In this document: positions 4,682 through 58,462 of the stretch, one piece after another | Position numbering within the stretch: the first letter of the stretch is position 1 | Layout of the letters: each line of letters opens with the position of its first letter | The notes under the pieces: model-generated | Databases searched by the model: none | Seen by the model: the letters and a program-made list of their open reading frames with translations, nothing else | What the model was told of the DNA's origin: nothing | Program-made: the position numbers and the translations under genes | NCBI GenBank assembly: GCA_964639945.1 | Contig: CAZXHY010000001.1 | Coordinates: forward strand, 9,527-73,526 | Source: an uncultured Gammaproteobacteria bacterium | Lineage (GTDB): Bacteria > Patescibacteriota > Microgenomatia > UBA10105 > UBA927 | DNA length: 64,000 nt | Direction: 5' to 3'

Positions 4682-5401
4682 TTATTTAAGAAAGCTAAAT
4701 GTGGAAAGTGTAGTTTTTCCGACCTCGAAAGACTTACTTCCGCGGGTTTGATTAAATTGATCAAAAAGGTATATTTTCCCTTTGTGACTGATCACCGAAA
4801 TGGTGCTTTCCCCGCGCTGGGCGGAGTTTACGGTGCCTGAGGCGACTATACCCGCCTCTCCTCCGATGAGAGTAGTAGATAGCGTGAATTTGGGTAAATC
4901 TAAAGACGCTGGCTGCGGTTGTGATGCGTCATAAAAATCTTTCACTAATTGGTTGTATTTTTCGACACCTTCCGTTTTCCACCAATCGGCTGCAGTTTTC
5001 TGTGATGGATATACATAGAGGGTGAATAGTATAGAGTCACTATTTGGGATACCCACGGAATACTCGCGTGTAGTTTTTAGTGCGGTGGTATCTTTTACTG
5101 TGTCAAATACTTCATAGGTGTCTGGTTGGTATTGGAAAGAAAAATCCTCTGTCGCGTAGTACTTCCATCCAGGAATCTGTGCCGTTTGAGCCGTTATCTC
5201 GGCTGGTGTCGGGGTGGGCACTATCGGGCCAGATGAATCGACCATGAGCTTTAGAGAAAGGAGATCGTGGGAGAGTTTGGTGTTTTGATTCAGAAGATAA
5301 GCTACGGTACTTCCAAGTCCAATCGTTATGACAAAAATAATCCAAAAGAGTATTTGAAAGATGTGAGATGAGCTACTGTCACTTTGAAGATCTTCTTCCA
5401 T
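4682..5401 (-). CDS. Hypothetical membrane-anchored/secreted protein
   Basis: 239 aa. N-terminal TM helix (IFQILFWIIFVITIGLGSTVAYLL) followed by a soluble domain. A TACAAT -10 element sits 6 nt upstream of the ATG, suggesting a leaderless transcript. No recognised domain. Confidence 0.5.
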   Translation of the reverse strand: MEEDLQSDSSSSHIFQILFWIIFVITIGLGSTVAYLLNQNTKLSHDLLSLKLMVDSSGPIVPTPTPAEITAQTAQIPGWKYYATEDFSFQYQPDTYEVFDTVKDTTALKTTREYSVGIPNSDSILFTLYVYPSQKTAADWWKTEGVEKYNQLVKDFYDASQPQPASLDLPKFTLSTTLIGGEAGIVASGTVNSAQRGESTISVISHKGKIYLFDQFNQTRGSKSFEVGKTTLSTFSFLK

Positions 5402-12510: not shown

Positions 12511-13112
12511 TCAAATTTATATATTTTGATTTGGGTGGAGTGGTTATAGATAACCATAAAGCACATAAAGAAATCGCAAAAATGGCTGGCTCGACGCCTG
12601 AGCAAATTTCTGACTTTTTTTCCGTAAATTGGAAAAAGGCGTGTGAAGGGGCCATGGATAGCGTGGCGTATATGAAATTGCTCAAAGATCAATTTAATGC
12701 TCCTCATCTGTCCAATGATTTTGTGAGCGTGCTGACTGACGCACAGGGCTTTTACGAAGAGACGCATCTTCTCATAGAAGAGTTGGCAGTAGATTACAAA
12801 CTTGGCATTCTTTCGAATGCAGAGTTTGGGGTCATAGACGCTTTATTTGCTAAAAAGAAAATCCCCAATGTAGCGTGGCACACTATAGTAGAATCCGCTC
12901 AGTACAATGTGGTGAAGCCTGATCCTAAGATATACGAAATCGCAGAAAAACTGGCAGGCGTATCTGCAGATGAATTGTTTTTTATCGATGATTTAGAGCA
13001 CAACGTAGATGCAGCTCGTGCCCGAGGTTGGCATGGAGAAGTGTTTGATCCGCATAAACCCACAGAATCAGTAAAAAAAATTAAGTCTGCATTGCGCGCT
13101 CATCAGAAGTAG
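12507..13112 (+). CDS. HAD-IA family hydrolase (phosphatase)
   Basis: Motif I 'IYFDLGGVVI' and motif IV 'FFIDDLEHNVDAA'. 4-nt overlap with gatD. Confidence 0.75.
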   Translation: MIKFIYFDLGGVVIDNHKAHKEIAKMAGSTPEQISDFFSVNWKKACEGAMDSVAYMKLLKDQFNAPHLSNDFVSVLTDAQGFYEETHLLIEELAVDYKLGILSNAEFGVIDALFAKKKIPNVAWHTIVESAQYNVVKPDPKIYEIAEKLAGVSADELFFIDDLEHNVDAARARGWHGEVFDPHKPTESVKKIKSALRAHQK

Positions 13113-13550: not shown

Positions 13551-13838
13551 TTATTCAATGCCAATAAACATGATTTTTGAGAAGATTTTTTGAATTTCCT
13601 CCATAAATTTTTCTGAGAGATTCATGGAGAATTTGCTGTATTGGCCTGCACCCATTTTCGCACAAAGTTTGCGTTCATAGTCACGGATGATATCCATGAC
13701 TTCGCTTCCTATAGCGTTAAATTTTTGTTTATTCATTTCAGGATTTAACACGTAGGCATCGTGTACCAAGGTGAATGAGTCAAATAGCTCTTTGTTATCG
13801 TCGAGCATTTCTTGTACGGCTAATCGATACTTTGTCAT
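13551..13838 (-). CDS. Hypothetical protein (95 aa)
   Basis: Protein-like composition. 4-nt overlap with the stop of the upstream large membrane protein gene. No recognised motif. Confidence 0.4.
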   Translation of the reverse strand: MTKYRLAVQEMLDDNKELFDSFTLVHDAYVLNPEMNKQKFNAIGSEVMDIIRDYERKLCAKMGAGQYSKFSMNLSEKFMEEIQKIFSKIMFIGIE

Positions 13839-16756
13839 ATATTACTACGATATCGATTTTTTTTGATTCGATCAAGAAGAAGATGTATATACCCAAGTTG
13901 CCATGGTAAAAATACGACAGATATTCCGCTTACCATGATGCCGATTATCGTGAGATTTTGTGGCCAATATATGATGCGGATAGACCGAGCAGGTCCACTT
14001 GGCACTATCCAACCGTTTGCATAGCCGTTTACTTGTATATGGCGCGTTGTGGTATTCGGGGTTGTCTCTATTGTCCATCCTTCGTCGAACGCATCACCAA
14101 AAGTGATTATATACGGTTCACTTGATGCTGAGACCTCTCCTTCAATTGAAGTAGGCGATGTACGGTGGTATACGATGCGCGGCGCTGTATGCGTCTCTAT
14201 ATTTTTTGATGAAATGCTATACAGTCTCGGTGGTTCCTCTTGAATTGTGTTATCAGATAAAATAAGCGTTACCTTTTGGACTCCCGCGCTGAGTAAAATT
14301 GGATATGTTGTGTCATGCTCATGACCATTTATAAGAAGTGTAGAATCAGCAGGTCTGTATTCCAAGTGAAGCATATATGAATCGGTACGAGGCAATGCGA
14401 ACGTGTATCGTAGCGTATTCGGTTCGGCTGTATATCGAAAAGCGTCGAGCGTAGCATACGTTTGTTTAAGCTTATTTTGTATGGGTTCGCTTATAGATTG
14501 AGATAAAGCAAGCGACGCTAACTGATTTTGGTAAAATGTCAGAAAATCCCAAGCACGGTTTGCATAATTGATTTGTGTTTGTCCTGACAACTCTGTGACA
14601 AGATCAGCTATCGCGCCAACATTATCGAGTAAACGGCTTGTGGTGTCTTCTATATGTGCGTAATTTTTTGACGATGAGCTTGTTAAATATGCGAGCTCTG
14701 CAATACGTTTTCCCATAAAGCCAATATGAAGATCTACCATACTTGCTCTGTTTTGTCGCATGGCTTGACTTGTTCTATTTTCTTTTGCAATTACGAGCTG
14801 GTATAGAGGAAAATCTGGAAATATTTTTAGATTTGGCAGAGACAAGTTTTTTATAGATTCACGTTCATATGGATCGCATCCGTGACATGTGGCTTCTATA
14901 ATTTCTCTTGTGATTGGTAGAGGGGGTTGATCGTGCGAAATAATTACGCTATTTTGTGGATTTTGTCCGATGTCGGCAATACTTGGTTGAAGTGAAGTAA
15001 ATATATCAACAGTTGAAAAAGTCTGCACTTGATGCGCAGTTGATTGTGCCACCTTGTAGAGTCGCCACGCACCATGTGTTGCTACATGTTGTGTGTCCGG
15101 AAGGGATAACAGTGTGTTTAGGTATGGAGCAAAATGCATTGATGTCGTAACCCCGTCTGTGTAGCGGATATCGTCTTGCCATAGTACATGTGTGATGCCA
15201 GTGATGCGTGCGAGTGCAGTGATTTTTTGTGTATCGCCAGTCTCAAAGGCACGATATATGTCTGATATAAGCATCGGTGCGTTTTTTTCATTGGCTACTA
15301 TGCTTCTAGCTGCGCCAAAATTAGGAAGCAGCGCGATGCTCCAATATCCCCATGTGTATGAATTAGAGAGAAATTTGTTATCGAGCGGTGGCAACAGTAG
15401 TATGCGATCTGTTTGTGCTGTTTTTGATTTTATGCTGGCAAGCATCTGGGGCACATATTCTGGGACAATGACTTTGGTGCTAAACTGAGGCGCGAACGCG
15501 AAAAATTTTGAGTCAAAATATTTGGAGTGATACGGGAAAATACCAATGAGTAGTATGCATGCAAGGAATAATCGAAGTTTCTTATTTTGTATTCGAAAAA
15601 GTAAATGCTGAAAAGAAATCCCAGAAAGTACAATGATAGGAAACCAAAGAGCTGGTGCAAATTTGAAAAATGAAGATCGAAATATTGCAAATCCGGGGAT
15701 ATGCTCGATCATAAAACGATAGATAAATCCGAGTGGGGGATGTGTGCCTGCTGCAAAAATAAGCCCAATAGGAATTAGGAGTAAAAGAGGTAAAACAATC
15801 TCTGACTTTTTGTGGTTTTTAGAAACATGCTTCCAGTCAAGCAACAAGAGTGCGATGAGTGTTATCGGAATAAAACTTGCGAGTTTCCCCAAGAAGTTGG
15901 TTTCGCCGAGTAAGCCCGGAACACCTTGTAGCCTGAGAAGGTTGAAATAACTTGTGCTAGTCGAGACTGTCGCTTCCCACGCAAGTATCCCCGCGGTCCC
16001 TCCGTGAGCACTAAGTTGTGCGGTATACCCAGTTATGGTTGTATGCGCCAGTGGAAGTATCCACCACGCGTTGGTAAGTACCGAAAGGATAAGGGTTGTA
16101 AAAACAAAGAGAATTAGTTGACCTCGAATACGCGTGTTTTTCTGTATCCAGAATAGTGTAACAATTGTTGTGCCCAGTGTAATGATGAGTGCGCCAAAAA
16201 GTGGCACAGAGCCACCGCCATTAAAAAAGAAAAGTATCAATGCTGCCAGCATGGCCGCTCGTATACCAGAAATGTTGCCCTGCGAGACGCGGGTGACAAG
16301 GGAAAACAATAGTGGGAGTGCGCAAAAGAGTGAAAATTTTGAGCGGTCTATATTTATCCATCCCTGAAGGATGTAAAAATTGTACATCCAAAGGAGACTG
16401 CACCAGAGACGGAGTGCCCAGAATTTGGATGAGGGATAAAGCGAACGTAAAGCAAAAAACATACTCGCGCCTATTAGGAAAAACCAAAAGACGAACATGA
16501 GTTGTTGTCCACTGTGTAGCGATCCGGTAAGAGTGTGAAAAAGAATTTCTGGCATTTTGACCATAAGAAGGCCCTTGTTTACAGACCAGTTATATCCGAA
16601 TGAAAGCGTGGGATTCCAAGAGTAAAAAAGATTCACTATGTGTTGGATTGCATCAATACGTCCGCCCGAGTCATTTCCCAAAATCACCTCCTGTGCATTC
16701 AACCACAAAAGAGGGGTAAAGCTTGATAGTGCGATGACGATGAGTTCCCAAATCAT
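13835..16756 (-). CDS. Large polytopic membrane protein, GT-C-like glycosyltransferase (DUF3367/AftD-like arabinofuranosyltransferase family?)
   Basis: 973 aa. The N-terminal ~430 aa carry many TM helices, followed by a large extracytoplasmic domain and a C-terminal TM anchor. This architecture is typical of GT-C enzymes. Family call is tentative. Confidence 0.6.
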   Translation of the reverse strand: MIWELIVIALSSFTPLLWLNAQEVILGNDSGGRIDAIQHIVNLFYSWNPTLSFGYNWSVNKGLLMVKMPEILFHTLTGSLHSGQQLMFVFWFFLIGASMFFALRSLYPSSKFWALRLWCSLLWMYNFYILQGWINIDRSKFSLFCALPLLFSLVTRVSQGNISGIRAAMLAALILFFFNGGGSVPLFGALIITLGTTIVTLFWIQKNTRIRGQLILFVFTTLILSVLTNAWWILPLAHTTITGYTAQLSAHGGTAGILAWEATVSTSTSYFNLLRLQGVPGLLGETNFLGKLASFIPITLIALLLLDWKHVSKNHKKSEIVLPLLLLIPIGLIFAAGTHPPLGFIYRFMIEHIPGFAIFRSSFFKFAPALWFPIIVLSGISFQHLLFRIQNKKLRLFLACILLIGIFPYHSKYFDSKFFAFAPQFSTKVIVPEYVPQMLASIKSKTAQTDRILLLPPLDNKFLSNSYTWGYWSIALLPNFGAARSIVANEKNAPMLISDIYRAFETGDTQKITALARITGITHVLWQDDIRYTDGVTTSMHFAPYLNTLLSLPDTQHVATHGAWRLYKVAQSTAHQVQTFSTVDIFTSLQPSIADIGQNPQNSVIISHDQPPLPITREIIEATCHGCDPYERESIKNLSLPNLKIFPDFPLYQLVIAKENRTSQAMRQNRASMVDLHIGFMGKRIAELAYLTSSSSKNYAHIEDTTSRLLDNVGAIADLVTELSGQTQINYANRAWDFLTFYQNQLASLALSQSISEPIQNKLKQTYATLDAFRYTAEPNTLRYTFALPRTDSYMLHLEYRPADSTLLINGHEHDTTYPILLSAGVQKVTLILSDNTIQEEPPRLYSISSKNIETHTAPRIVYHRTSPTSIEGEVSASSEPYIITFGDAFDEGWTIETTPNTTTRHIQVNGYANGWIVPSGPARSIRIIYWPQNLTIIGIMVSGISVVFLPWQLGYIHLLLDRIKKNRYRSNI

Positions 16757-36520: not shown

Positions 36521-37000
36521 ATGAGTGGTGAAGTAGTTATCGCCGGATTGTATATAAGCCCTGATGCGAGAGAGCCTATGATTTCAGTTTCGGAAGTCGA
36601 GGCTATTGCTGGCGTTGGCCTTCGGGGAGATCGATATTCATTGGATATTCGAAAGGGTGAATTTCAACAGCACGGTAAGGCAAAAACTCGCGTGCGGCAA
36701 GTAACTTTTTTTTCAATGGATGCGCTACGAAACACTGGTTTTGAAGGCATAGATACACGTCGCAATGTTGGAATTTCTGGACCATTTGAAGCGTACAAAT
36801 ATTTGGGGAGACGATTTCGAGTTGGTGAGGCAATTTTTGAGGGGGATTGGGAATGTGCACCATGTAAAGTACCATCAATTGTTTCTGGAAAGGTGGGATT
36901 TGAAAAATTACCTCCAGAAATCGGTGGTATACGCGCCAAAATATTGGAGGGTGATATACTTCGGATCGGTCAACCTCTCGTGTTAATACCAATCAAATAA
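36521..37000 (+). CDS. MOSC domain-containing protein
   Basis: 'GLRGDRYS...RQVTFFSMDAL' is MOSC-typical. A conserved Cys is present near the C-terminus. Confidence 0.65.
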   Translation: MSGEVVIAGLYISPDAREPMISVSEVEAIAGVGLRGDRYSLDIRKGEFQQHGKAKTRVRQVTFFSMDALRNTGFEGIDTRRNVGISGPFEAYKYLGRRFRVGEAIFEGDWECAPCKVPSIVSGKVGFEKLPPEIGGIRAKILEGDILRIGQPLVLIPIK

Positions 37001-37171: not shown

Positions 37172-37243
37172 GGGTCGGTAGCTCAATGGTAGAGCAGTAG
37201 CCTTTTAAGCTATTGGTTCAGGGTTCGAGCCCCTGCCGACTCA
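37172..37243 (+). tRNA. tRNA-Lys (anticodon TTT)
   Basis: GGGTCGGTAGCTCAATGGTAGAGCAGTAGCCTTTTAAGCTATTGGTTCAGGGTTCGAGCCCCTGCCGACTCA. Anticodon loop is CTTTTAA. Confidence 0.85.
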
Positions 37244-44537: not shown

Positions 44538-45122
44538 TTATGGACAGGTAAGAGTGAATTCTGCTTGATTGCTGAGTGCATCATTTGGCGCGGTCACTTT
44601 TATTCGCTGCCAACCAGTCCTCGTTCCGCTCCCGTTTGCAAAAAGCGTCCATGTGGTCGATACGGATTGCATACCTGCACCTGTAAATGTGATAGATTGT
44701 TCTGCACTGACCGCGTTATCGCTTCGTAGCCAAGTGTATTTCACTGTGGTTGCGGCGTTGGTATATATCTTTGCGGTAAAAGTAAATTGTTGATCGCTAC
44801 AAGTGTTTGTCGTTCCACTGGGGGTAACGGAGGTTTCTATGTTTACAACCGATGGCGCAGGCGTGGGGCTTGGCGTAGATGTTGGTGCAGATGTGGGCTT
44901 TATGGTTGTTGTTGGTGTGGGCTTGAGTGTAGCAGTTGGTGTCGGGGTTTCAGATGGAGTAGGTGAGACCTCCAGTGTCGGCTCTGGGGTTGCGCGTGGC
45001 GAGACCAGAGTTGGCTCAGGATTTCCAGAACTTTGTCTGCCAAAATAAAATGCAGCGCCTATGATAAGGAGAAGTAAAATAACACCACCCGCGATCATAA
45101 GTGCTTTTTTGTGTTTGAGCAT
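44538..45122 (-). CDS. Membrane-anchored protein with Pro/Thr-rich linker and C-terminal Cys-Pro
   Basis: Start at the internal ATG (MLKHKKALMIAGGVILLLLII...). (TPTP)-rich linker. C-terminal domain ends ...TLTCP. Architecture matches 59110..59673. Confidence 0.55.
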   Translation of the reverse strand: MLKHKKALMIAGGVILLLLIIGAAFYFGRQSSGNPEPTLVSPRATPEPTLEVSPTPSETPTPTATLKPTPTTTIKPTSAPTSTPSPTPAPSVVNIETSVTPSGTTNTCSDQQFTFTAKIYTNAATTVKYTWLRSDNAVSAEQSITFTGAGMQSVSTTWTLFANGSGTRTGWQRIKVTAPNDALSNQAEFTLTCP

Positions 45123-45329
45123 AGCAATGTTTATACACTGTAAGGGCAAAAAGTGCAACCAAGGTGGAGTATACGATTGACATGTACGCTCTTGTGTTTT
45201 AGGATACTGGGTATGAACGCAAAGCTTCACATTGTTATTTGTCTCACCCCCGCATAACGGGAGGACGATGGCGATGTGAATGGCCAGAAATCCCCCAAAT
45301 ATGAGGGGATTTTTTTGTAGAATTTTCGT

Positions 45330-46076
45330 ATGCATTCACAAGAAGTAAAAAAATTTGTACCTGATCCACGTTGGAAAGAACACAGCGGAGCATTGCTTGT
45401 GGTTCCACATGCTGATGATGAAGTGCTTATCGGATGGGGACTTATCCAAACGCTAGTGGATAGTGGAGTTCCAGTCACTGTCCTTTTATTATCATTGGGT
45501 GAAAAAGGAAAAGTGTATGGAAACGAGACGCCAGAAAAAGAGATAAAAGCGATACGTCGTGATGAGTTCTATAATGCTACAGAAGCACTGGGAGTGCGTG
45601 GGGTTATCTATGAGCCGACGTTTCCTGACTCAGAATTAGCTCAACATCAAGAGGAGTTAAACAAAGCCCTTACCCGCTATGTGCGAGAGCAAAGATTTGA
45701 TGTGTTGGTCTCGTTTGCTCCGAGCGAGCGGACATATGGATTTGATCATACTGATCATCATGCAGTAGCTGCGGCAGCAGTGATAGCTTCAGAGAAGGCT
45801 GATATGCCATCCATGTTTCCTGATAGCGGTAAAGCATTGTCGTATCGGCCTAGTCTACTTGGGTGGACTACGAATTTACATATCGGAGCAATTCACCAAC
45901 TATCAGAAATAGCTCTTACTGAGGAGTCAAAGATGAAAATGGGTGAATTCCTATCTCAGCATTATCCATCTCAGTTTTCCCGAGAGGCAAAAAATTTATG
46001 GGGTCCTATATTTGATCGAATTACCCAATCCTCAGATGCCTCTGGTCATCGTCAATTGTATTTTCAGATACGATAG
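45330..46076 (+). CDS. PIG-L family (LmbE-like) deacetylase, second copy
   Basis: 'LVVPHADDEVLIGWG' and '...FDHTDHHA...'. Confidence 0.8.
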   Translation: MHSQEVKKFVPDPRWKEHSGALLVVPHADDEVLIGWGLIQTLVDSGVPVTVLLLSLGEKGKVYGNETPEKEIKAIRRDEFYNATEALGVRGVIYEPTFPDSELAQHQEELNKALTRYVREQRFDVLVSFAPSERTYGFDHTDHHAVAAAAVIASEKADMPSMFPDSGKALSYRPSLLGWTTNLHIGAIHQLSEIALTEESKMKMGEFLSQHYPSQFSREAKNLWGPIFDRITQSSDASGHRQLYFQIR

Positions 46077-48004: not shown

Positions 48005-48152
48005 TCCTCTATTGTGCACGAGCGCCGAGTCAAGCGTAACCGTGTGCCCCGAAGCTAGATACCTATTTCCCAAATATACGCGATGGATTTTCTACATTGG
48101 TAGGGAAACTACGGTAAAAAATATAAATTTTTTTAAAGAAAGCGAGATATAT

Positions 48153-48596
48153 ATGACACAAATTGAAGAAACACAGGTGACAGACACTACACAAGTAATT
48201 CGAGAAATACCATTTGGGCAAAGACGTACGACGACGGTAAAAGTAGTGTCACCCAAGGACTATGAGACCAAGAAGGCGATATTTCGCACGTATCAGGTGA
48301 TTTGGTATGTGCTCGGAGTCATAGAAGTATTGCTAGCTTTTCGAATACTTTTGAAGTTATTGGGTGCAAATACCTATAGTAGCTTTACTGTGTTCATATA
48401 TGCGTTAAGTAGGCCATTCTCTCAGCCATTTGCTGGGATTTTGGGAATAAGCAGTAGTTCCGAAATGGTATTTGAGTGGTCGACACTTATCGCTATGGCA
48501 GTGTATGCAGTGCTTGCGTATGGTTTGGTAGCGCTGTTTCAGCTGGTGAAACCTACAAACCCACAAGAAGTAGATGAGTCGATAGCAAATCAATAA
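48153..48596 (+). CDS. YggT family membrane protein
   Basis: 'FRILLKLLGANTYSSFTVFIYALSRPFSQPFAGILGI' resembles the YggT core. Start at ATG 48153; the ORF track's TTG-initiated extension was rejected. Confidence 0.55.
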   Translation: MTQIEETQVTDTTQVIREIPFGQRRTTTVKVVSPKDYETKKAIFRTYQVIWYVLGVIEVLLAFRILLKLLGANTYSSFTVFIYALSRPFSQPFAGILGISSSSEMVFEWSTLIAMAVYAVLAYGLVALFQLVKPTNPQEVDESIANQ

Positions 48597-48600
48597 ATAT

Positions 48601-48804
48601 ATGAAATTAAAAAAACAATTGATTGCGAAGAAAAAGTTAGGAAGGGTTTTGGTGGGGATGTTTGTGGTGCTTATGTGCATGCAGCTTCTTGTAAACCTAG
48701 GTGTGCCGCTTTTGCAAAAATATGTAGCATCACATGCACCAAATCCACCATCACAAGCAAGTATGGTGAGCGAGAAGGTTGAGACAGGTAAACAGTTGAA
48801 ATGA
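48601..48804 (+). CDS. Small membrane protein (67 aa)
   Basis: One TM helix. Follows yggT by 4 nt. Confidence 0.4.
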   Translation: MKLKKQLIAKKKLGRVLVGMFVVLMCMQLLVNLGVPLLQKYVASHAPNPPSQASMVSEKVETGKQLK

Positions 48805-48844
48805 CTGAAAAGATTTTTGTAATACGGGAGGAGGTGAAAAATAT

Positions 48845-49096
48845 ATGGATATACTTTTATGGATTATTTTTGGGGCAATAGCAGGGTGGATAGCATCCAT
48901 GCTTATGCATACTGATGGAGGACAGGGTACGGTGATGGACATTGTGTTGGGTATTGTCGGGTCTGTGGTGGGAAATTATCTCTTTGGATTAGCTGGACAG
49001 TCTGGCGTTTCTGGATTTAATTTGTACAGCATGGGAGTGGCAATAGTTGGCGCGGTCGTTGTCATTTATGTCGGGAGATTGTTACGAGGAAGATAA
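48845..49096 (+). CDS. GlsB/YeaQ/YmgE family stress-response membrane protein (transglycosylase-associated protein)
   Basis: 'ILLWIIFGAIAGWIASMLM...VLGIVGSVVGNYLFGLAG' is the family signature. SD GGAGGAGGTGA 8 nt upstream. Confidence 0.75.
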   Translation: MDILLWIIFGAIAGWIASMLMHTDGGQGTVMDIVLGIVGSVVGNYLFGLAGQSGVSGFNLYSMGVAIVGAVVVIYVGRLLRGR

Positions 49097-49125
49097 TCAT
49101 AAAAATTTGAGAGGAGGTGAAACAT

Positions 49126-49407
49126 ATGACAAATACACAAATCGATAAAAAGAAGCTTGATGGAGGAGTGAATCCGATTATAGCGGGAGTAGCAGGCGTT
49201 ATAGCTGGTGGAATGGCAGTAGCTGCAGCAGTTGCGATAAGCAACAAAGATAATCAAAAGAAAGTTGCAGATGCCGTCATTGGTGCAAAGGACAAAATAG
49301 TCGGATACGTCGACGAAATGACCGATAAACCAGCATTAGAAAAAGCTGCACGCGCAGTGACCGACAAGGTCACAGAGGTGAAAAAGAAGATTGAAGCAAA
49401 AATATAA
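49126..49407 (+). CDS. Small membrane-anchored protein with K/E-rich coiled coil (YtxH-like?)
   Basis: SD GAGGAGGTGA before ATG 49126. TM helix (IIAGVAGVIAGGMAVAAAVAI) followed by a charged helix. Confidence 0.5.
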   Translation: MTNTQIDKKKLDGGVNPIIAGVAGVIAGGMAVAAAVAISNKDNQKKVADAVIGAKDKIVGYVDEMTDKPALEKAARAVTDKVTEVKKKIEAKI

Positions 49408-49445
49408 TAGGTTTTTATAGACCTACGTAGGGAGGTGAATAATTT

Positions 49446-49643
49446 ATGACAACAATAGTTCAAAACCCAGCGCCTCAAGAATCCGGAAATGGCGTGGGGA
49501 TGATGGTTGGAATACTTTTGGTGGTGCTTGTTGCTATCCTATTTTTTGTGTATGGCATTCCCGCCATGCGAGGCGCAGCATCTGTAGTACCGCAAGTAAA
49601 TATTCCAGATACGATAAATGTAAATGTTCAACCTGCGAAATAA
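49446..49643 (+). CDS. Small membrane protein (65 aa)
   Basis: SD GGGAGGTGA. A single TM helix. Confidence 0.45.
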   Translation: MTTIVQNPAPQESGNGVGMMVGILLVVLVAILFFVYGIPAMRGAASVVPQVNIPDTINVNVQPAK

Positions 49644-49656
49644 GTAATTGTGATAT

Positions 49657-49689
49657 GCCTGCTGGGAGTAATCCGAGCAGGCTAGGTTT
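49657..49689 (+). terminator. Terminator-like hairpin after the small-protein array
   Basis: gcctgctgg...ccgagcaggc followed by 'taggtttt'. Confidence 0.45.
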
Positions 49690-49758
49690 TCAGCTGAAGG
49701 AGAGTTATCGCACAGCGCAAATTATTTTGGAGTGATAGTATTTTAGACAGGAGGCCAT

Positions 49759-50157
49759 ATGAAAGGTTTTGCCAAAAATATAGAGAAATTGACCGAAGAA
49801 AATATTAATTTCCGAAATGTCTTATATACAGGAAAACATAGTCAGCTAGTGCTCATGAGTTTGTTGCCAAACGAGGAGATTGGATTGGAAACACATCCGG
49901 ACAATGATCAATTTTTCCGTTTCGAAAAAGGAACAGGAATGTGTGTCATAGATGGAAATGAATATCAAGTGAGCGCAGGTGACGCGGTGGTAGTACCAGC
50001 GGGTGCTGCGCATAACATTATCAATACGTCAAAATCTGAAAGTCTAAAAATCTACACCCTCTACAGTCCTCCCCACCACAAAGATGGTATTGAGCGAAAG
50101 ACCAAGATAGAAGCCCAGCGGGATAGTCCAGATTATGATGGGGTAAACACGGAGTGA
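49759..50157 (+). CDS. Cupin domain protein
   Basis: Cupin motifs 'G(X)5HXH'-like 'ETHPDNDQFF' and 'GDAVVVPAGAAHNIINT'. SD AGGAGG. Confidence 0.7.
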   Translation: MKGFAKNIEKLTEENINFRNVLYTGKHSQLVLMSLLPNEEIGLETHPDNDQFFRFEKGTGMCVIDGNEYQVSAGDAVVVPAGAAHNIINTSKSESLKIYTLYSPPHHKDGIERKTKIEAQRDSPDYDGVNTE

Positions 50158-50206
50158 CTTGTGTAAATATTTGACCCGAACCTAATAAAGACATATAGTA
50201 GCCCCG

Positions 50207-50548
50207 ATGGCACCATACAAGAATCCAGAGCACGGTACGTATGCGTCGCATTATATTTTTCTTGATGGGAGGCTTTATTCCACCCTTCCAACAGAGAGTG
50301 TTCGAGAAATCACCCATGTGATGTTGGCCAAGCGGGATAACATATTGCGTAAATTTCGCCAAGCAGCACGAAAAGATGAGGATTCAGTCTATGCTGCGTC
50401 ATTTATGGTCGTTGGCGACCGTATCACAGTATATAAATCGCTAAAAAGATATCGAACTCTAGAGTTTCCTGCAACCAAACAAGCGTTTGACAATACACTG
50501 AAGGCGTTCCGTACGTTAAGTCCAGCGTTCACTGTCGAATCTGGCTAA
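50207..50548 (+). CDS. Hypothetical protein (113 aa)
   Basis: Protein-like ORF, no motif. Confidence 0.4.
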   Translation: MAPYKNPEHGTYASHYIFLDGRLYSTLPTESVREITHVMLAKRDNILRKFRQAARKDEDSVYAASFMVVGDRITVYKSLKRYRTLEFPATKQAFDNTLKAFRTLSPAFTVESG

Positions 50549-50564
50549 ATATATCTGTAGATGT

Positions 50565-50942
50565 ATGAGAAGATTCGAACGAAAAGCACATCACGAAGCT
50601 ATCGGTCACGAATACGATTGGTATCGTGCGCATGGTGGAAAATTGACTGAGTCGGGATACAAATCCGTGTTTGCGGAAGTTAATAGAGAAGAAATGTCTT
50701 CCTCTACTCGATCGCAGGCGATACACATGATGGATACTATTCCGAGAACCGCCTCTGGTCGTGTGCGACGGTATATACATAGCGAAGTCGCTACACGTGT
50801 ATATGGCGCGTTGCGAGAACCGATGAAGCATGAGTGCGCGAGTTGGTCCGATCAACAAATATTTGCAGAAGTACTGCTGATTTTGCATTATGTGGCAGGG
50901 AATGCTGCATTTGAAAGAAAATATCCAAACATTTTTCATTAA
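50565..50942 (+). CDS. Hypothetical protein (125 aa)
   Basis: Balanced composition. The antisense ORFs covering it look non-coding. Confidence 0.4.
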   Translation: MRRFERKAHHEAIGHEYDWYRAHGGKLTESGYKSVFAEVNREEMSSSTRSQAIHMMDTIPRTASGRVRRYIHSEVATRVYGALREPMKHECASWSDQQIFAEVLLILHYVAGNAAFERKYPNIFH

Positions 50943-51007
50943 GAAAATTTTTATAATGATGTATAGTAGTAGAGAGGGAAAATAATTGTAAACGACTAAG
51001 GAGGTAT

Positions 51008-51361
51008 ATGAAAAAAAAGTATGCATTGGACTGGTGGATGGTGACAGGGGTAATTGAGATGGTCGTCGGTATAGTAGGAGTGCTTTCTCGTGTAAACACC
51101 GATGCATTGGCTGGAGCGCTTGTACTTGGTGCAGTACAGATGGTGTTTGGAGTAGCGCTTATGCAAAAAAGCAAACTAGTCTTTTGGCTAGGGCTGATTA
51201 TGGCGGGTATGAATTTACTATCTGTTCTCAACAATCTTGCCAAAGGATCAATCGATACATCTTTGGCATACATGATTGCGATCATGTTTGTCGGAGTTCG
51301 GTTTGCTGCATATGTGATGCTATATCAGCAAATTCGCGCAGTAAAGATAAAGAAGGTCTAA
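51008..51361 (+). CDS. Integral membrane protein (117 aa)
   Basis: SD AAGGAGG 6 nt before the ATG. Three or four TM helices. Confidence 0.55.
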   Translation: MKKKYALDWWMVTGVIEMVVGIVGVLSRVNTDALAGALVLGAVQMVFGVALMQKSKLVFWLGLIMAGMNLLSVLNNLAKGSIDTSLAYMIAIMFVGVRFAAYVMLYQQIRAVKIKKV

Positions 51362-51365
51362 GTGT

Positions 51366-51926
51366 ATGATGTCGCCTGCCACTCATCATCCAAATCTTTA
51401 TGTGGTAGCGGGGGCTGAGTTATCCCGATCGGAGATTGATCAAATGATGGCCTCTTTGAAGCGAGAATTTGGGCTTACACCCACCCTAGAGTCCTTATAT
51501 GAGAAAATATTTTTTCTACTCAAAGACGGTGAGGAAATTCTTGCTATGGCAGGGATATGGAGTGTTCCGCCATTTGTTTTTGAGGGGAAGACATTCCCAG
51601 TGCACGCACTCGTCGAGGTCATAGCAAATATAAAAGGCGAGGGGTATGGCAAACGAGTGGTATGTGCGATTCACGACTACCTGCAGGCAAAAAATCTAAC
51701 AGGATTTGGTTTTTGTGCTCCAAAGACCAGTGAGTTTTACAAAAAATGCGGATTTGCGGTGGTAGAGGGTGTGACTGATCGGTTTATCTACAGAGAGAAA
51801 GGGAAAGATATCACCAATCAAGATGGTCAAATAATTTTTTATCTCGATAACTCTGATGAGTTTATCAAAAGGGTGTTAGCAGATCCCAGTCACGATATTT
51901 TTATTTCTACGCCCGAGCTTTGGTGA
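51366..51926 (+). CDS. GNAT family N-acetyltransferase
   Basis: 'GEGYGKRVVCAIHDYL...GFGFCAPKTSEFYKKCGF' GNAT motifs A and B. Confidence 0.6.
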   Translation: MMSPATHHPNLYVVAGAELSRSEIDQMMASLKREFGLTPTLESLYEKIFFLLKDGEEILAMAGIWSVPPFVFEGKTFPVHALVEVIANIKGEGYGKRVVCAIHDYLQAKNLTGFGFCAPKTSEFYKKCGFAVVEGVTDRFIYREKGKDITNQDGQIIFYLDNSDEFIKRVLADPSHDIFISTPELW

Positions 51927-51972
51927 GTGGCGCAGACTATCTGATTTTCTACAAAAGTGATATACTCTGATC

Positions 51973-52359
51973 ATGAAAGAGACAGTTAATCCAAATATCG
52001 AAGTGCTTAAGCAGCAGCCAATCTCAGTGCGTGATTGGGAGCATATGAATGGTCGCGAAAAGCGATCATATCTGGCACCTCTATCTTGGAAAGATCGGGC
52101 CACATTCATGCTCACAGCAGCACAGGACTTTGAGTCTCTCCCATGGGAGGAACGTAGGGAAATACGTTTAGAGTCTATCGAAAAACTTGAGAGTCAGCCT
52201 AAAGCATCTCTGGGAGATAAGGTAAATCTAGCGTTTTTGAAAGGGTCGGTGAAAATTGGCGATTGGGTAAACGTACGATTGCCTGCGCAATTGTCCCGCG
52301 GCAAAGAACTCATGCGACGTCGTAGTCCCTATATAGTGCCTGAAGTAAAAACCGTGTAA
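51973..52359 (+). CDS. Hypothetical protein (128 aa)
   Basis: ORF only. Confidence 0.4.
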   Translation: MKETVNPNIEVLKQQPISVRDWEHMNGREKRSYLAPLSWKDRATFMLTAAQDFESLPWEERREIRLESIEKLESQPKASLGDKVNLAFLKGSVKIGDWVNVRLPAQLSRGKELMRRRSPYIVPEVKTV

Positions 52360-52369
52360 CCATACATAT

Positions 52370-52600
52370 ATGGCAGATGGATTCAAAGAGGTGTGTGTAG
52401 ATTGCCGATTTCATCAAGCCGTAAAAAAAGAATTGGTAAGGTTTAAAAATGGACAAATGTATATGGTGACAGGAGTATGTACAAATGAACGAAGTATTTT
52501 AAACAAAATTCAGGTTGCAGGAAATTTAACTCCAAAGTCAAATATCATATATAGAAAGCTTCAATTAGCGGATTTCAAAGAGTGTTTTGTTCAGAAGTGA
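52370..52600 (+). CDS. Small Cys-containing protein (76 aa)
   Basis: 'CVDC...C...C' arrangement suggests a zinc-ribbon-like fold. Confidence 0.35.
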   Translation: MADGFKEVCVDCRFHQAVKKELVRFKNGQMYMVTGVCTNERSILNKIQVAGNLTPKSNIIYRKLQLADFKECFVQK

Positions 52601-52702
52601 TTATTCGGTGGATACGACAATTCACATTTTTTATATAGTATCCTACCCTCAAGCCATAAAAGATGGATATAGGGGTGTTGTGAACGGTATTTATAGATAA
52701 GA

Positions 52703-53092
52703 TTATCCCTCATTTATTGATTGGCCGGTGGCGAAATAAGCGCCATCTTGAAACGAATATATATACCCACGAGTAGACACGATACGCAATTTTTCTTTTT
52801 CTGTAGGTTTTTCAAATGTGCCAAATGCCCAACCTCTGATTGTATGTCCTCTACCATTTCTTTCTATGACCATAAAAGATTCTGCGCTACCAGATTTGGC
52901 TTTTTTGGCCGCATTTTCTCCTCCGCCAGACCAACATGTGTAGTGTCTGCAAAACGTTCCTGCGACATGGAGGTGCTTGTCTGTGATAACACCAGTACCA
53001 CCTGCTATATTTATAGTTTCTGGACGAAGCTCGGGGTGGCAAATATCGCGAATTCTGCATGTATTTTTGCAGGCATGAATATCAGGCTTCAT
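52703..53092 (-). CDS. Cys/His-rich small protein, paralog B of the unrecognised family
   Basis: 129 aa. Alignable along its full length with 33990..34385: CKNTCRIRDICHPELRPETIN / CGKCRIRKLCPEALQPEIVN; FCRHYTC / FCRHFMC; GYIYSFQDGAYFATGQ / GKVYSRDQEHGTFYPTGQ. Confidence 0.6.
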   Translation of the reverse strand: MKPDIHACKNTCRIRDICHPELRPETINIAGGTGVITDKHLHVAGTFCRHYTCWSGGGENAAKKAKSGSAESFMVIERNGRGHTIRGWAFGTFEKPTEKEKLRIVSTRGYIYSFQDGAYFATGQSINEG

Positions 53093-53150
53093 AACACGTG
53101 ATTATATCAAACTATAGGGTATTTATACAGAAATAGAGTATAATCCGCGA

Positions 53151-53606
53151 ATGCCTGCTTTAAACGAACATTTAATCTGTAGAACAAAAAATGTTTCTGT
53201 AGCCGTCCCAGCTGAGTGGTATCCCGATCAGGCCGTCGTAGTGGCCATGGCATATATCTCACAAGAGGTTTTAAACAAGCTACATCTCAACTTTGGGCGT
53301 GCAAGAATACGATTTATCGCAGATGCAACTCTCGGTGCTGACCATATTTTACTTCGTACATCAGATACGATTTGGAATACTGAGGCAAAAATTTTGGTTC
53401 ACCCAAGAATGAAGAATATGGTAGTAAGTTCTCGCTCAAGTGATGCTATAGCAGGTTTGGTGGCATCTGCTGCTGCAGTTTCTCGACATATAATTTTTCA
53501 CCCATTTACCAAAGAGCCTGCTATTCAAGTAGTGCAAGATCGGGCAAATACATTAGCATTGGATTTTATAAAGAATGCGAGGAGAAAGCAGGGATCTGTA
53601 GGGTAG
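53151..53606 (+). CDS. Hypothetical protein (151 aa)
   Basis: ORF only. Confidence 0.4.
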   Translation: MPALNEHLICRTKNVSVAVPAEWYPDQAVVVAMAYISQEVLNKLHLNFGRARIRFIADATLGADHILLRTSDTIWNTEAKILVHPRMKNMVVSSRSSDAIAGLVASAAAVSRHIIFHPFTKEPAIQVVQDRANTLALDFIKNARRKQGSVG

Positions 53607-53610
53607 CACT

Positions 53611-53841
53611 ATGACCGATATTGAATCACGATTAGAAGCGCTCGCGAGCCAGTTTGATCCAGCCAAATCCAAAAATAAACCTGTGCGTGCGCAATGTATA
53701 TCTACGTATTTATCCATGGCGGACGACGGGCTAATTGTACTAGAGCATGGAGAGTATGAGTTTTACAAGCTTCGTTTGATGCGACTCGCAAATCGTATGG
53801 AAAAGCATAAACTCCAAACACACCGCTCTCTTCAAAAATAA
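53611..53841 (+). CDS. Hypothetical protein (76 aa)
   Basis: 5 nt after the previous gene. Helical. Confidence 0.35.
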   Translation: MTDIESRLEALASQFDPAKSKNKPVRAQCISTYLSMADDGLIVLEHGEYEFYKLRLMRLANRMEKHKLQTHRSLQK

Positions 53842-53907
53842 CCAGTGTTGCTTGACGAAAGTGCGTATTGCGTATGGTTCATGTAAATTTTGATATAATC
53901 ATCTCCC

Positions 53908-54570
53908 ATGATTAAGCTCGTTCTTCTAGATTTTGACGATACGCTGTGTCTCACAGAAGAGACGGCGTTTGTGGTGGAAAACGAGGTCGCTAAAGCTATG
54001 GGTCATGCTCCTATGACACGTGCTGCACACCAGAAAAACTGGGGTGATTTGCTGGAGATAGCTATCACAGAACGAATTCCGGGGATTGATGCCAAGGAGT
54101 TTATGAGTAAGCTTGGTGGATATATAAAGCGATTTATAGAAAATGGGACATTGGATGCTATACGCACTGAGAATATTCGCACGCTACAGACACTGAGGGC
54201 GAAAGGAAAAAGAGTTGCCATACTGACGTCTAGATCGTTGCCAGAAATCACGCATCTGATGCTTCCATCGCATCCGTTGAGTGCTCATATAGAGCAGTTT
54301 TATCACAAAGATAATTCTCGACATCTCAAGCCTGATCCTCGTACGTTTGAGCAGGCGTTGATAGACTTTGCAGTTCTCCCTGACGAAGCAGTATATGTAG
54401 GAGACGCTGTCACCGATGCGGTAGCCGCCAAAGGCGCCGGACTCCACTTTATAGCAGTGTTGGAAAGTGGATTGAGGAAACGTGCGGAATTTGAAGATGA
54501 AAAAGTAGATTTTTTTGCACCGAAATTTACTGATATTGCGACCTATATTCTGCACAAAGGTGCAAAATAG
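53908..54570 (+). CDS. HAD family hydrolase (phosphatase), second copy
   Basis: Motif I 'LVLLDFDDTL' and motif IV 'VYVGDAVTDAVAAKGAG'. Confidence 0.75.
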   Translation: MIKLVLLDFDDTLCLTEETAFVVENEVAKAMGHAPMTRAAHQKNWGDLLEIAITERIPGIDAKEFMSKLGGYIKRFIENGTLDAIRTENIRTLQTLRAKGKRVAILTSRSLPEITHLMLPSHPLSAHIEQFYHKDNSRHLKPDPRTFEQALIDFAVLPDEAVYVGDAVTDAVAAKGAGLHFIAVLESGLRKRAEFEDEKVDFFAPKFTDIATYILHKGAK

Positions 54571-54576
54571 ATGGGG

Positions 54577-55113
54577 TTATTTTGTGCTTTCCAGTACCTG
54601 CTTTTCCAAAATTTTTTCTATCCTATCAACATTTGTGGGCTTGATCATAGACTGAAGGTCTTTATCGCTCTGTATATCTATCCCATTTTTTTCCATGAGA
54701 ATGCTTGTCATGTGGATCAATTTGGTAAGTTCTTGTTCTGTGATGATGTCTACCTGTAGGTCGATTTCTTCGCGTAGGTCGTCTATTTTGGACGCGCGAT
54801 TTTGAGAGATAAGCACAAAGATTGCAAGGATGATCGCTTCAAGCGATACGATCATGGTGAGAAGTCCAAACGGATATGGGTCAAATGGAGTGATAGTTGG
54901 GATAGCTCCAACATTTATAAGAATCCATGTCGTAAACCATACGACGTTTATGGAAAGAAACGGTATGCTTCCAAGCGAGGCTGTCATCCAATCTGCGATA
55001 ATTTCGGGTAGCGTGCGTCGTGCGTTTGCTTTGGCTTTTAAGCTTTTGAATATTCTTCGGCCAGTATAAAGTTGGGATTGTAGGATTGGATCTGGAGGTG
55101 TATTTAGGCTCAT
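54577..55113 (-). CDS. DUF1003 family membrane protein
   Basis: 'FLSINVVWFTTWILINV...FDPYPFGLLTMIVSLEAIILAIFVLISQNR' is the characteristic DUF1003 core. Confidence 0.55.
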   Translation of the reverse strand: MSLNTPPDPILQSQLYTGRRIFKSLKAKANARRTLPEIIADWMTASLGSIPFLSINVVWFTTWILINVGAIPTITPFDPYPFGLLTMIVSLEAIILAIFVLISQNRASKIDDLREEIDLQVDIITEQELTKLIHMTSILMEKNGIDIQSDKDLQSMIKPTNVDRIEKILEKQVLESTK

Positions 55114-55118
55114 GCCAT

Positions 55119-56051
55119 CTATTTTACACTATACAATCGAAAGAATTCATGGAGGATTGCCGTAGCACGTTTTCTGGTAGCCGGGTCTTGAAGAGCTGCG
55201 GTGACTTCCTCGTGACTCGTAGCATTTGTCCCGTCTTGGGCGATAACGTTGGAAACGAGTGATATCCCCAACGTATCCATGCCAATGTTTGATGCTGTAA
55301 TAATTTCTGGGACTGTGGACATACCCACAGCATCAGCGCCTTCTACTCGCAATGCTTGCGAGTCTGCGGCGGATTCAAATGTTGGACCGGTGAGTGCAGC
55401 ATATACACCATCATGCAGATGAGAATTTTCCCCTACATTTGATGCCGCTTGATGGAGCAAATCTCGTAATGATTTTTTATATTGATCTTGTTGTGGTTGA
55501 AACCTCTGGGGATCCATAAATGATACTTGGGGACCGAGTAATACATTTGGGAAATGGATATCCAAATGAGAAGAGATTGCCATAAGATCTCCGGGGTTTT
55601 GCGCGCTATTTAATCCTCCTGCTGCGTTTGTGGCGATATACAATTCTGCGCCAAGGGCGCGGGCTACATAGACAGGGAATACTACGTTTTTCAGCGCGAT
55701 GACTTGATTTGGTTGCCCACCATCTTCGTAATAATGTCGTCGTCCTTGGTAGCCGATGACTGGTACGCCTTCGATATATCCTGCAATCAGTTTACCCGCG
55801 TGTCCTACCACCGTGGGCTTGAAAAACCCCGGAATATCTTCGTACGGGATGGTGGCCACTTTATCTATACTCTCTGCTATGTCACCCAAACCTCCAGATC
55901 CCAAGGTAAGCACAACTTTGGGCGTAAAGTTAGCAGGAAGTTTGTCTTTGATATAGGCGGCAGCCGTATCTATATTTTTTCGATACGCTTCTGGATCAAA
56001 GCGAGAAGGTGCTTCTTGGTATTTAGCGCGTATACGCTCTATGTGTAGCAT
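55119..56051 (-). CDS. Purine nucleoside phosphorylase / MTAP family (PNP family 1, trimeric PunA-like)
   Basis: 'LTLGSGGLGDIAESID...VVGHAGKLIAGYIEGVPVIGYQGRRHYYE' resembles PunA/MTAP. Confidence 0.75.
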   Translation of the reverse strand: MLHIERIRAKYQEAPSRFDPEAYRKNIDTAAAYIKDKLPANFTPKVVLTLGSGGLGDIAESIDKVATIPYEDIPGFFKPTVVGHAGKLIAGYIEGVPVIGYQGRRHYYEDGGQPNQVIALKNVVFPVYVARALGAELYIATNAAGGLNSAQNPGDLMAISSHLDIHFPNVLLGPQVSFMDPQRFQPQQDQYKKSLRDLLHQAASNVGENSHLHDGVYAALTGPTFESAADSQALRVEGADAVGMSTVPEIITASNIGMDTLGISLVSNVIAQDGTNATSHEEVTAALQDPATRKRATAILHEFFRLYSVK

Positions 56052-57814: not shown

Positions 57815-58462
57815 ATGCTTTCAGAAGGTATCCATCGTCTCGATCTTGCTGTCGCTCCACGAAATGGTTTTCGTGTGCTGGATTGGAAAGTGATCACACC
57901 TCGTGCAAATGAGTTATACATAGGTTTCGGAAGAGTAGGAATGAAACATGCATTGGCGGCTTTAGATGATGGTATAGAGCGCCAGATAACTGGAAAGGCT
58001 GAAAGTGGGGTAAAGGCACGTGTTGTCGCGTGGAATGGGGTAAATGGGTGGGTAGCTGGATATTCTCGAGATGGTAGGCAGGTGGGATATGGACACATCA
58101 CCTATCAGCCAAAAATTTCTGTGGCTGACCTTTTGGGGTACCAGAGTGAATATGTCGTAGGTAGCGCATATCAGCGAAAAGGTATCGCTCGCGCCATGAA
58201 AGATTTGTTGGAGATGTATGCAGCGTCAACCGTGATGGATCCGCATCGTGGTATAGGTATACTAAGCACTGTACGTGCCAGTGATGCGGAACATGCAGAC
58301 GCATCGCGCAGATTGCTACGGCGCGTAGGAGCAGTGTCGATCTCTTCGCAGGATGATATGTATCGCCGAATTATCATACGACCTGATTATGCCAAGCGTG
58401 AGCGTATTGCTGGGGTTATGTATCTGAAAACAAGTGAAGTGGAACCTAGAGTGAACTACTGA
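57815..58462 (+). CDS. GNAT-like acetyltransferase (putative)
   Basis: 'VVGSAYQRKGIARAMKDLL' resembles GNAT motif A (Q/R-x-x-G-x-A). Confidence 0.4.
   Translation: MLSEGIHRLDLAVAPRNGFRVLDWKVITPRANELYIGFGRVGMKHALAALDDGIERQITGKAESGVKARVVAWNGVNGWVAGYSRDGRQVGYGHITYQPKISVADLLGYQSEYVVGSAYQRKGIARAMKDLLEMYAASTVMDPHRGIGILSTVRASDAEHADASRRLLRRVGAVSISSQDDMYRRIIIRPDYAKRERIAGVMYLKTSEVEPRVNY

Follow-up and report, generated by a model that had tools for sequence, protein, structure and literature searches.

Ten small genes in a probably native, flexible region of a Patescibacteria chromosome

The block described here comprises ten small genes, labelled O1 to O10, at positions 49759-53841 of a 64-kb stretch of DNA (contig CAZXHY010000001.1; the whole stretch is referred to below as the window). 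The window is chromosomal DNA of a Patescibacteria bacterium of the Candidate Phyla Radiation (CPR) and contains the genes for DnaE, the F-type ATP synthase, CTP synthase, DinB and a family X polymerase, together with four tRNA genes. At 90% identity, the CTP synthase clusters with an NCBI protein that is labelled Candidatus Woesebacteria bacterium. According to the list of open reading frames (ORFs), the block consists of ten non-overlapping ORFs of 76-186 amino acids (aa), as a preliminary description made from the DNA letters had stated, with the correction that O8 is located on the minus strand; the other nine are on the plus strand. The block is bordered by an array of small membrane protein genes on the left (48012-49643) and by a HAD hydrolase gene on the right (53908-54570). 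Further genes upstream encode MsrB, a PIG-L deacetylase, an S-adenosylmethionine (SAM) methyltransferase, a YGGT protein and a Transgly_assoc (GlsB/YeaQ/YmgE-type) protein. Downstream, HAD is accompanied by a DUF1003 protein and a purine nucleoside phosphorylase (PNP). The genes had been described as unusually short and dense, and the longest run of consecutive genes of less than 190 aa in the window is indeed the one that ends at O10 (14 genes).

All ten ORFs are genuine protein-coding genes, because each of them scores as coding in its own frame and has orthologues with ratios of nonsynonymous to synonymous change (dN/dS or pN/pS) well below 1. In a codon log-odds model, for which 21 long window ORFs served as the training set, O1-O10 score positive in their own frames only (0.04-0.26 per codon; training genes 0.225 +/- 0.057), with the lowest values for O7 (0.04) and O8 (0.10). 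All ten proteins also appear, with identical sequence, among the public gene calls made on several assemblies of this organism. Orthologues under purifying selection were found for all ten in related metagenomic genomes. Seven related loci were recovered by exact-protein look-ups (L007, L024/L025, L017, L018, L019 and L022), of which L007 and L024/L025 are from one sister species, each representing a strain of it. Against L007, dN/dS is 0.045-0.16 for O1, O3, O4, O5, O6, O8 and O9.

Long antisense ORFs, noted earlier as not protein-like, are present on the minus strand at 50021-50362, at 50529-51107 (192 aa, over O3/O4; coding score -0.15) and at 50791-51285 (164 aa, over O3/O4; coding score +0.01). 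Their coding scores are negative or close to zero, two of them are interrupted by stop codons in L017, and no opposite-strand ORF of more than 67 aa was found over the O3-O4 orthologues of L007. These ORFs are frame shadows and not genes. A plus-strand ORF overlapping O8 (52721-53101) was rejected as a shadow of O8 on account of its codon score (-0.13 versus +0.10 for O8) and of the independent gene callers, which chose the minus strand.

O1 (49759-50157, +; 132 aa) encodes a monocupin. It matches Pfam Cupin_2 (PF07883) with an E-value of 6e-16 and 58.4 bits, which passes the curated threshold of 27.2 bits, and phrog_13536, a phage protein family without assigned function, with an E-value of 7e-26. 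O1 resembles the BH2720-type monocupin of PDB entry 2oa2 in an alignment over residues 3-119 (E 2e-23) and in an intact second cupin motif, read from the sequence as G-x5-P-x-G-x2-H-x3-N (GDAVVVPAGAAHNIIN). It differs in the first motif, which is degenerate (H-P-D...Q in place of H-x-H...E), and the function of BH2720 is itself unassigned. Orthologues with 73-83% identity and dN/dS of about 0.06-0.07 occur in L007, L024, L018, L022 and L019. O1 is a putative metal-dependent cupin enzyme or binder.

O2 (50207-50548, +; 113 aa) is a basic soluble protein of unrecognised family and is variably present, with orthologues of 94% identity in L017 and 81% in L018 (dN/dS 0.084 for L017, and 0.127) and a 33-aa remnant in L022; it is absent from L007, L024 and L019. 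O3 (50565-50942, +; 125 aa) is a basic all-alpha protein, also of unrecognised family, with dN/dS of 0.076 against L017. Its N-terminal half evolves fast, its C-terminal WSD..IFAEVLL..PNIF is invariant, and a fold search with O3 gave non-specific matches. O4 (51008-51361, +; 117 aa) is a membrane protein with about four transmembrane (TM) segments, displaying four hydrophobic segments and a grand average of hydropathy of 0.97. Its orthologues are 79-85% identical in six of the six relatives that cover the slot, with dN/dS of 0.06-0.09.

O5 (51366-51926, +; 186 aa) starts 4 nt after O4 and is a probable, divergent GNAT-fold acetyltransferase. It resembles the GNAT N-acetyltransferases in its Pfam Acetyltransf_1 (PF00583) score, which at 20.8 bits lies 0.1 bit above the cut-off of 20.7, in a motif-A-like K-G-E-G-Y-G followed by KRV, and in weak matches in NCBIfam, PHROGs and PDB, the best PDB matches being streptothricin and GCN5-type acetyltransferases. 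It is very divergent from them, with Lys where the GNAT motif has Gln/Arg (Q/R-x-x-G-x-G/A), a C-terminal extension of about 50 aa and a 4-TM protein, rather than an antitoxin or regulator, as partner. Orthologues are about 70% identical in L007, L024 and L019 (dN/dS 0.16). O5 is a putative acetyl-CoA-dependent N-acetyltransferase that would act with or beside O4. The cupin and GNAT assignments had both been regarded as weak, which holds for O5 but not for O1.

O6 (51973-52359, +; 128 aa) is a basic soluble protein of unrecognised family with orthologues of 76-84% identity in five relatives (dN/dS 0.05-0.06). O7 (52370-52600, +; 76 aa) contains four conserved cysteines (C9-x2-C12, C37 and C72) and is a putative small zinc-binding protein; it is 76% identical to its orthologues in L018 and L019 (pN/pS 0.16-0.18, dS being saturated). 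The L019 copy (12737-12967) has an in-frame TAG at codon 32 and is absent from the gene calls; either this copy is a pseudogene or the TAG is a sequencing error, a recoded stop being less likely.

O8 (52703-53092, -; 129 aa), the only minus-strand gene of the block, has an invariant Cys4/His4 set in its N-terminal half and a beta-rich C-terminal half. Both O7 (Cys4) and O8 (Cys4His4) are putative metal binders. A homologue of O8 with 70% identity comes from a 'Patescibacteria group bacterium', and in the loci L013-L015 of more distant Patescibacteria O8 is not accompanied by any of the other nine genes. Its homologue adjoins an Rsm22-like SAM methyltransferase gene in two different contexts (L013 8471-9927; L015 790-2194), and this adjacency may reflect a functional link; no counterpart of these distant neighbours (Rsm22-like methyltransferase, EamA) was found in the window. 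A gene with a zeta-toxin domain is located near the O8 homologue in L015.

O9 (53151-53606, +; 151 aa) represents a very rare family without a Pfam or PDB match (dN/dS 0.07-0.09). An exhaustive phmmer search with the single O9 sequence against 1.84 billion representatives yielded five real relatives with 29-81% identity, all of them stand-alone proteins of about 150 aa in which no Pfam domain was found. The family shares an invariant His-Pro (H84-P85) and a near-invariant H117-P118. The 1043-aa protein P0028 was discarded as a relative because it is a low-complexity repeat protein, and a weak similarity of O9 to g215 (E 0.1) was set aside in view of the GNAT-like motif A in g215. O10 (53611-53841, +; 76 aa), a basic protein of unrecognised family, starts 4 nt after O9. 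It has an 82% identical orthologue in the same slot of L024/L025 and is 77% identical over 53 aa to the product of a 72-aa gene beside O4 in L022 (dN/dS 0.12 for L024 and 0.10 for L022). O10 is absent from L007, L018 and L019; in L007 and L018, O9 then runs directly into the HAD promoter.

As had been stated in the preliminary description, the remaining eight proteins (O2, O3, O4 and O6-O10) are unrecognised: none has a Pfam, NCBIfam, PADLOC or meaningful PHROG match. PDB sequence searches with O2, O3, O6, O8 and O9 as single sequences and with O6, O8 and O9 as profiles gave nothing below an E-value of 0.1, and scans of metagenome contigs with O8 and O6 found no relatives. In collections of 1.8-5.8 billion proteins, homologues of the eight fall into no more than a handful of clusters, and the O8 and O9 families are still dark after sequence, profile and fold searches. 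The seven soluble proteins among the eight are all basic (isoelectric point 9.1-9.9), in contrast to the recognisable enzymes nearby, which are acidic. No paralogy or shared motif was found among O1-O10. The seven proteins would act individually, perhaps on nucleic acids or in redox or metal stress.

The block is probably not one operon, because separate conserved promoters or Shine-Dalgarno (SD) sites precede O1, O2, O4, O6, O8 and O9 and because members of the block are lost independently. It probably forms about six one- or two-gene units (O1, O2-O3, O4-O5, O6-O7, O8 and O9-O10), the second genes of the pairs starting 4-16 nt after the first (16 nt for O2-O3). The expression elements of the units are kept across three to six species. 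O1 and O4 have a conserved AGGAGG SD site 5-7 nt before the ATG (in five species for O1). The best promoter-like site of the scan (10/12), TTGACC-17-TATAGT at 50171-50199 (+), belongs to O2; its -10 box ends 7 nt before the ATG, and both hexamers are kept in L017 and L018. O6 is preceded by an extended -10 box, TGATATACT, at 51958-51966 (+), and TGATATACT + 6 nt + ATG is identical in the window, L007, L018, L019 and L022. The O9 box, TATAAT at 53139-53144 (+), is kept as TATAAT + 6 nt + ATG in L007, L024, L018 and L022.

The extended -10 box of O8, TTGATATAATCA at 53099-53110 (-), lies 6 nt before the ATG and is kept in L007; the promoter, which reads TTTGATATAATCA + 6 nt + ATG, is recognisable in the distant L013 as TGCTATAAT + 8 nt + ATG. 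The same exact 12-mer occurs in the window at only one other place, the HAD promoter (53890-53901, +; 6 nt before the ATG), which is invariant as ATTTTGATATAAT in the window, L007, L018, L019, L022 and L024. The two sites form the inverted repeat I10, with 18-nt arms at 53099-53116 and 53884-53901 that bracket O9-O10. I10 was rejected as a terminal inverted repeat because its arms are the conserved O8 and HAD promoters facing each other.

O2, O6, O8 and O9 resemble HAD and PNP in having the -10 box 6-8 nt before the ATG. With the box so near the start codon, the transcript would begin at or beside the ATG, and the position of the motif suggests that the O2, O6, O8 and O9 units are probably read from leaderless mRNAs.

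Comparison with the related loci separates a syntenic backbone from variable slots. The cupin gene O1, O4, O6, HAD and PNP are present in every locus that spans them, and the window matches L007 about as closely in the block (73-77% nucleotide identity) as in the flanks (72-79%), so that the block has diverged together with its surroundings. The other seven of the ten genes (O2, O3, O5, O7, O8, O9 and O10) are variable. Among the relatives, O2 is found only in L017 and L018, apart from the remnant in L022, and only L022 lacks O3. In place of O5, L018 and L022 carry genes for an ArsR-type regulator, a glutaredoxin and a rhodanese on the other strand. The O7 slot holds O7 in L018 and L019 and an unrelated 71-aa gene in L007 and L024. 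Among the related loci O8 is found only in L007, O9 is missing only in L019, and O10 occurs only in L024/L025 and, in a different slot, beside O4 in L022. Extra genes in the relatives encode a PAS_4 protein between the cupin and O2, three products before O9 (386 aa, 132 aa and a methyltransferase), a 153-aa protein with a glutaredoxin domain and a 102-aa membrane protein. Gene content between the cupin/methyltransferase and HAD/PNP genes thus differs among the related genomes, as in a flexible region. The DUF1003 membrane protein gene between HAD and PNP (54577-55113, -) is unique to the lineage of the window; in the relatives, a phosphoribosyltransferase gene and one to three small genes stand in its place. 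The flexible region thus reaches beyond O10 and past the right-hand limit (53900) drawn in the preliminary description.

Turnover of the slots is recent and recombinational, as is evident from two comparisons. L024 and L007 are 99.57% identical over 5.35 kb, and yet the segment bounded by the HAD promoter and the end of the 71-aa gene holds O9 and O8 in L007 (5050-6011) and O10 and O9 in L024 (4474-5269), the two O9 copies being only 75% identical. This swap ends at the HAD promoter, which marks the right boundary of the variable O8/O9/O10 segment. In the second comparison, the window and L017 (1-1574) share 86-98% nucleotide identity from 50158 to about 51009, a tract of some 850 bp with O2, O3 and the spacer; from the start of O4, identity falls to 68-83%. 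The corresponding dS values are 0.33 for O2, 0.20 for O3 and 1.56 for O4. Left of 50158 the L017 sequence is unrelated, and L017, like L018, carries a PAS gene on the other strand. The sharp change of divergence in the O3/O4 spacer points to recombination between lineages, a chimeric 1.6-kb contig being the less likely explanation. On the HAD-to-PNP side L007 and L024 are 94.9% identical, so that several recombination tracts meet there.

The composition of the block is native. With the 64-kb window as the only reference, its G+C content is 0.419 as compared to 0.434 +/- 0.010 for windows of the same size (5th percentile, about 1.5 standard deviations low). Its tetranucleotide distance is surpassed by 42% of same-size windows, and its synonymous-codon distance by 28% of equally sized sets of consecutive genes. 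The check on G+C and codon deviation that had been proposed thus yielded ordinary distances and no sign of foreign origin.

These observations argue for the block as a flexible part of the native chromosome of a Woesebacteria-like CPR bacterium, made up of small genes from lineage-restricted families and not of one system, and this is the reading that we consider probable. The genes are real and of native composition, they are partly syntenic with those of relatives, cassettes have been replaced between strains, and a recombination boundary is present. The backbone (cupin, O4, O6, HAD and PNP) would be inherited vertically, and in the slots between backbone genes whole genes or gene pairs would be gained, lost or swapped. 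The exchange would probably proceed by homologous recombination among relatives that occur together, the breakpoints falling in intergenic or promoter sequence and each unit being expressed from its own conserved promoter or ribosome-binding site. The label 'accessory-like' given earlier to the block fits its gene content, in which seven of ten genes come and go, but not a foreign or island nature, given the native composition and the syntenic backbone. Uniform composition and conserved synteny, with homologues of established core function, had been named as observations that would speak against an accessory role; composition is uniform and synteny is partial, and homologues of established function are missing for the eight dark genes.

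Several points weigh against this reading. The G+C content of the block is at the low end of its range. Scans of species-representative genomes, which used N-terminal patterns, gave no relative for the O8 alignment and only an unrelated Methylococcus match for the PNP alignment; no genome of the clade was recovered from that collection, and the comparison consists of seven metagenomic contigs, some of them short. L017 is a single 1.6-kb contig and might be an assembly chimera. As eight of the ten genes have no established function, a hidden functional link between units is possible, and the tightly spaced pairs O4-O5, O6-O7 and O9-O10 (4-10 nt) may be functional pairs. A theme of redox or metal stress is weak, being guilt by association: it is suggested by the ArsR-glutaredoxin-rhodanese genes, the glutaredoxin gene and MsrB in or flanking the same slots, by the cupin and by the Cys/His-rich O7 and O8. 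Leaderless transcription is likewise a prediction from motif position.

Among the alternatives, the one that fares best holds that the ten genes work together as one cluster, which might be a regulon for redox or metal(loid) stress, for example, or a short pathway built on the cupin, the acetyltransferase and the metal-binding proteins. It is unlikely. The genes are co-oriented and tightly packed, ArsR-glutaredoxin-rhodanese or glutaredoxin genes lie inside the same region in relatives, MsrB and stress-type small membrane proteins are encoded upstream, and O7 and O8, to judge from their Cys and His residues, could bind metals. Each unit has its own conserved promoter or SD site, however, members drop out or are exchanged independently of one another, even between strains that are nearly identical, and the more distant genomes have O8 alone; neither paralogy nor a shared motif ties the ten proteins together.

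A narrower alternative singles out O2-O3 as a module of its own that moves between lineages, for instance as an addiction pair or one resembling a toxin-antitoxin system, and leaves the rest of the block as ordinary. O2-O3 resembles type II toxin-antitoxin pairs in consisting of two small genes in one short unit that is patchy and exchanged between lineages: both proteins are small and basic, the genes are 16 nt apart behind their own conserved promoter, O2 is patchily distributed, and the tract of about 850 bp shared with L017 is flanked by an O4 at species-level divergence and by an unrelated left flank. It differs from such pairs in that no toxin, antitoxin or DNA-binding domain is recognisable (Pfam, NCBIfam and PADLOC gave no toxin or antitoxin domain), and in that O3 is stable alone, kept without O2 in L007, L024 and L019 in the same chromosomal slot. 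Since O3 without O2 is always at the same locus, the pattern indicates allelic replacement at a fixed locus and not transposition. The non-specific fold search for O3 and the single short contig of L017 also count against the module, which we regard as improbable.

About equally doubtful is a miniature, CPR-specific hotspot of cassette exchange, in which promoter-led (leaderless) single-gene cassettes would be shuffled between co-existing strains for strain-specific interaction with the host cell or its phages. The cassettes would encode novel small proteins that are basic, bind metal or carry the His-Pro motif, namely O7 (Cys4), O8 (Cys4His4) and O9. If it were true, O8 and the O9 'VHP' family would be founders of new functional families, and promoter-bounded swapping would be a distinct mode of accessory-gene turnover in ultra-small bacteria.

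The suggestion that the block might be a defence island, or another horizontally acquired island or mobile remnant for anti-phage or host interaction, is largely refuted and very unlikely to be correct. It could draw on the small, dense, unannotated genes with variable presence among relatives, on the match of the cupin to phrog_13536 and on the zeta-toxin gene near the O8 homologue in L015. The PADLOC run that had been proposed (PADLOC-DB v2, E up to 0.1) gave no match for any of the ten block proteins, and for ten flanking proteins it gave only PD-T4-6 on a 265-aa ORF at 44538-45335 (-) without a Pfam match (E 7e-4, 17 bits), a match that probably reflects distant similarity to kinases and does not argue for defence. 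The earlier statement that no integrase or transposase is visible holds: Pfam and NCBIfam scans of the block and its neighbours gave no integrase, transposase or recombinase domain. No bounding direct repeats were found, I10 being the sole notable inverted repeat, and no tRNA gene lies within about 6.5 kb of the block (the nearest are at 37172 and 60364). Viral-contig scans with O3 and O8 found no relatives. Composition and codon usage are native, the divergence of the block from the sister species equals that of the flanks, and the backbone genes are syntenic in all relatives. The idea that not all ten ORFs are genes, some having arisen by chance or being remnants of pseudogenes in a decaying region, for which the low codon scores of O7 and O8, the nonsense codon in the L019 orthologue of O7 and the reduction of O2 to a remnant in L022 might be cited, is already refuted for this genome by the full-length orthologues of all ten with dN/dS or pN/pS well below 1 and by the calls of all ten in independent pipelines on several assemblies.

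As a native, flexible region of lineage-specific genes of unrecognised family the block is a known phenomenon; the gene families themselves are undescribed, and no new kind of system is indicated. It is fairly ordinary for Patescibacteria, where the majority of genes lack annotation and dark lineage-specific genes are the rule. For this phylum, 283,874 lineage-specific unknowns have been catalogued, most of them restricted to a species or genus, and its ratio of unknown to known genes ranks among the highest (Vanni et al. 2022, eLife, PMC9132574). The block resembles that set, in that eight of its ten proteins have no known family and their homologues fall into few clusters.

Flexible genomic regions, also called genome plasticity regions or hypervariable ('metagenomic') islands, exchange cassettes between conserved flanks by homologous recombination and typically contain glycosyltransferase, surface-structure or defence genes. 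The block is similar to them in its conserved flanks and backbone, varying slots, sharp intergenic recombination boundaries and native composition. It differs in its size of only about 4 kb, its single-gene cassettes and the reduced CPR genome around it, and it is without glycosyltransferase, surface-structure, defence or mobile-element genes.

The main value of the result is negative: an island-looking stretch is native chromosome and is not to be counted as a candidate new defence system. It also provides clear evidence of homologous recombination and of single-gene cassette replacement between very close strains in an uncultured lineage of episymbiont type. O8 and O9 are compact members of dark families and small enough for direct biochemical or structural work.

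Of the 79 probable genes of the window, 15 are preceded by a TATAAT-like -10 box whose end lies 4-10 nt from the start codon, as compared to 2.4% at random positions; an SD-like motif precedes only 11 of the 79, and no gene has both. Genes with a near -10 box include those at 4682-5401 (-), 13835-16756 (-), 36521-37000, 45330-46076, 53908-54570, 54577-55113 (-), 55119-56051 (-) and 57815-58462. This architecture suggests that leaderless mRNAs are widespread in this CPR genome and would serve about a fifth of the window genes. A literature search on leaderless transcripts and Patescibacteria found no paper addressing such mRNAs.

Two further proteins with such promoters lie outside the block. 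The ORF at 13835-16756 (-; 973 aa) has good coding statistics and no Pfam domain at an E-value of 1e-5 or better; its product is possibly a surface or host-interaction protein. The 215-aa protein encoded at 57815-58462 (+), with a leaderless-type promoter, has no Pfam match. Its sequence contains YQRKGIARAM, which resembles motif A of GNAT proteins, and it may be a further divergent acetyltransferase that the profiles overlooked. Upstream of the block, three small membrane protein genes share a 25-nt initiation region, (G)GGAGGAGGTGAA-N-ATATATG (48821-48847, 49104-49130 and 49424-49448), and their strong SD sites contrast with the leaderless type in the block.

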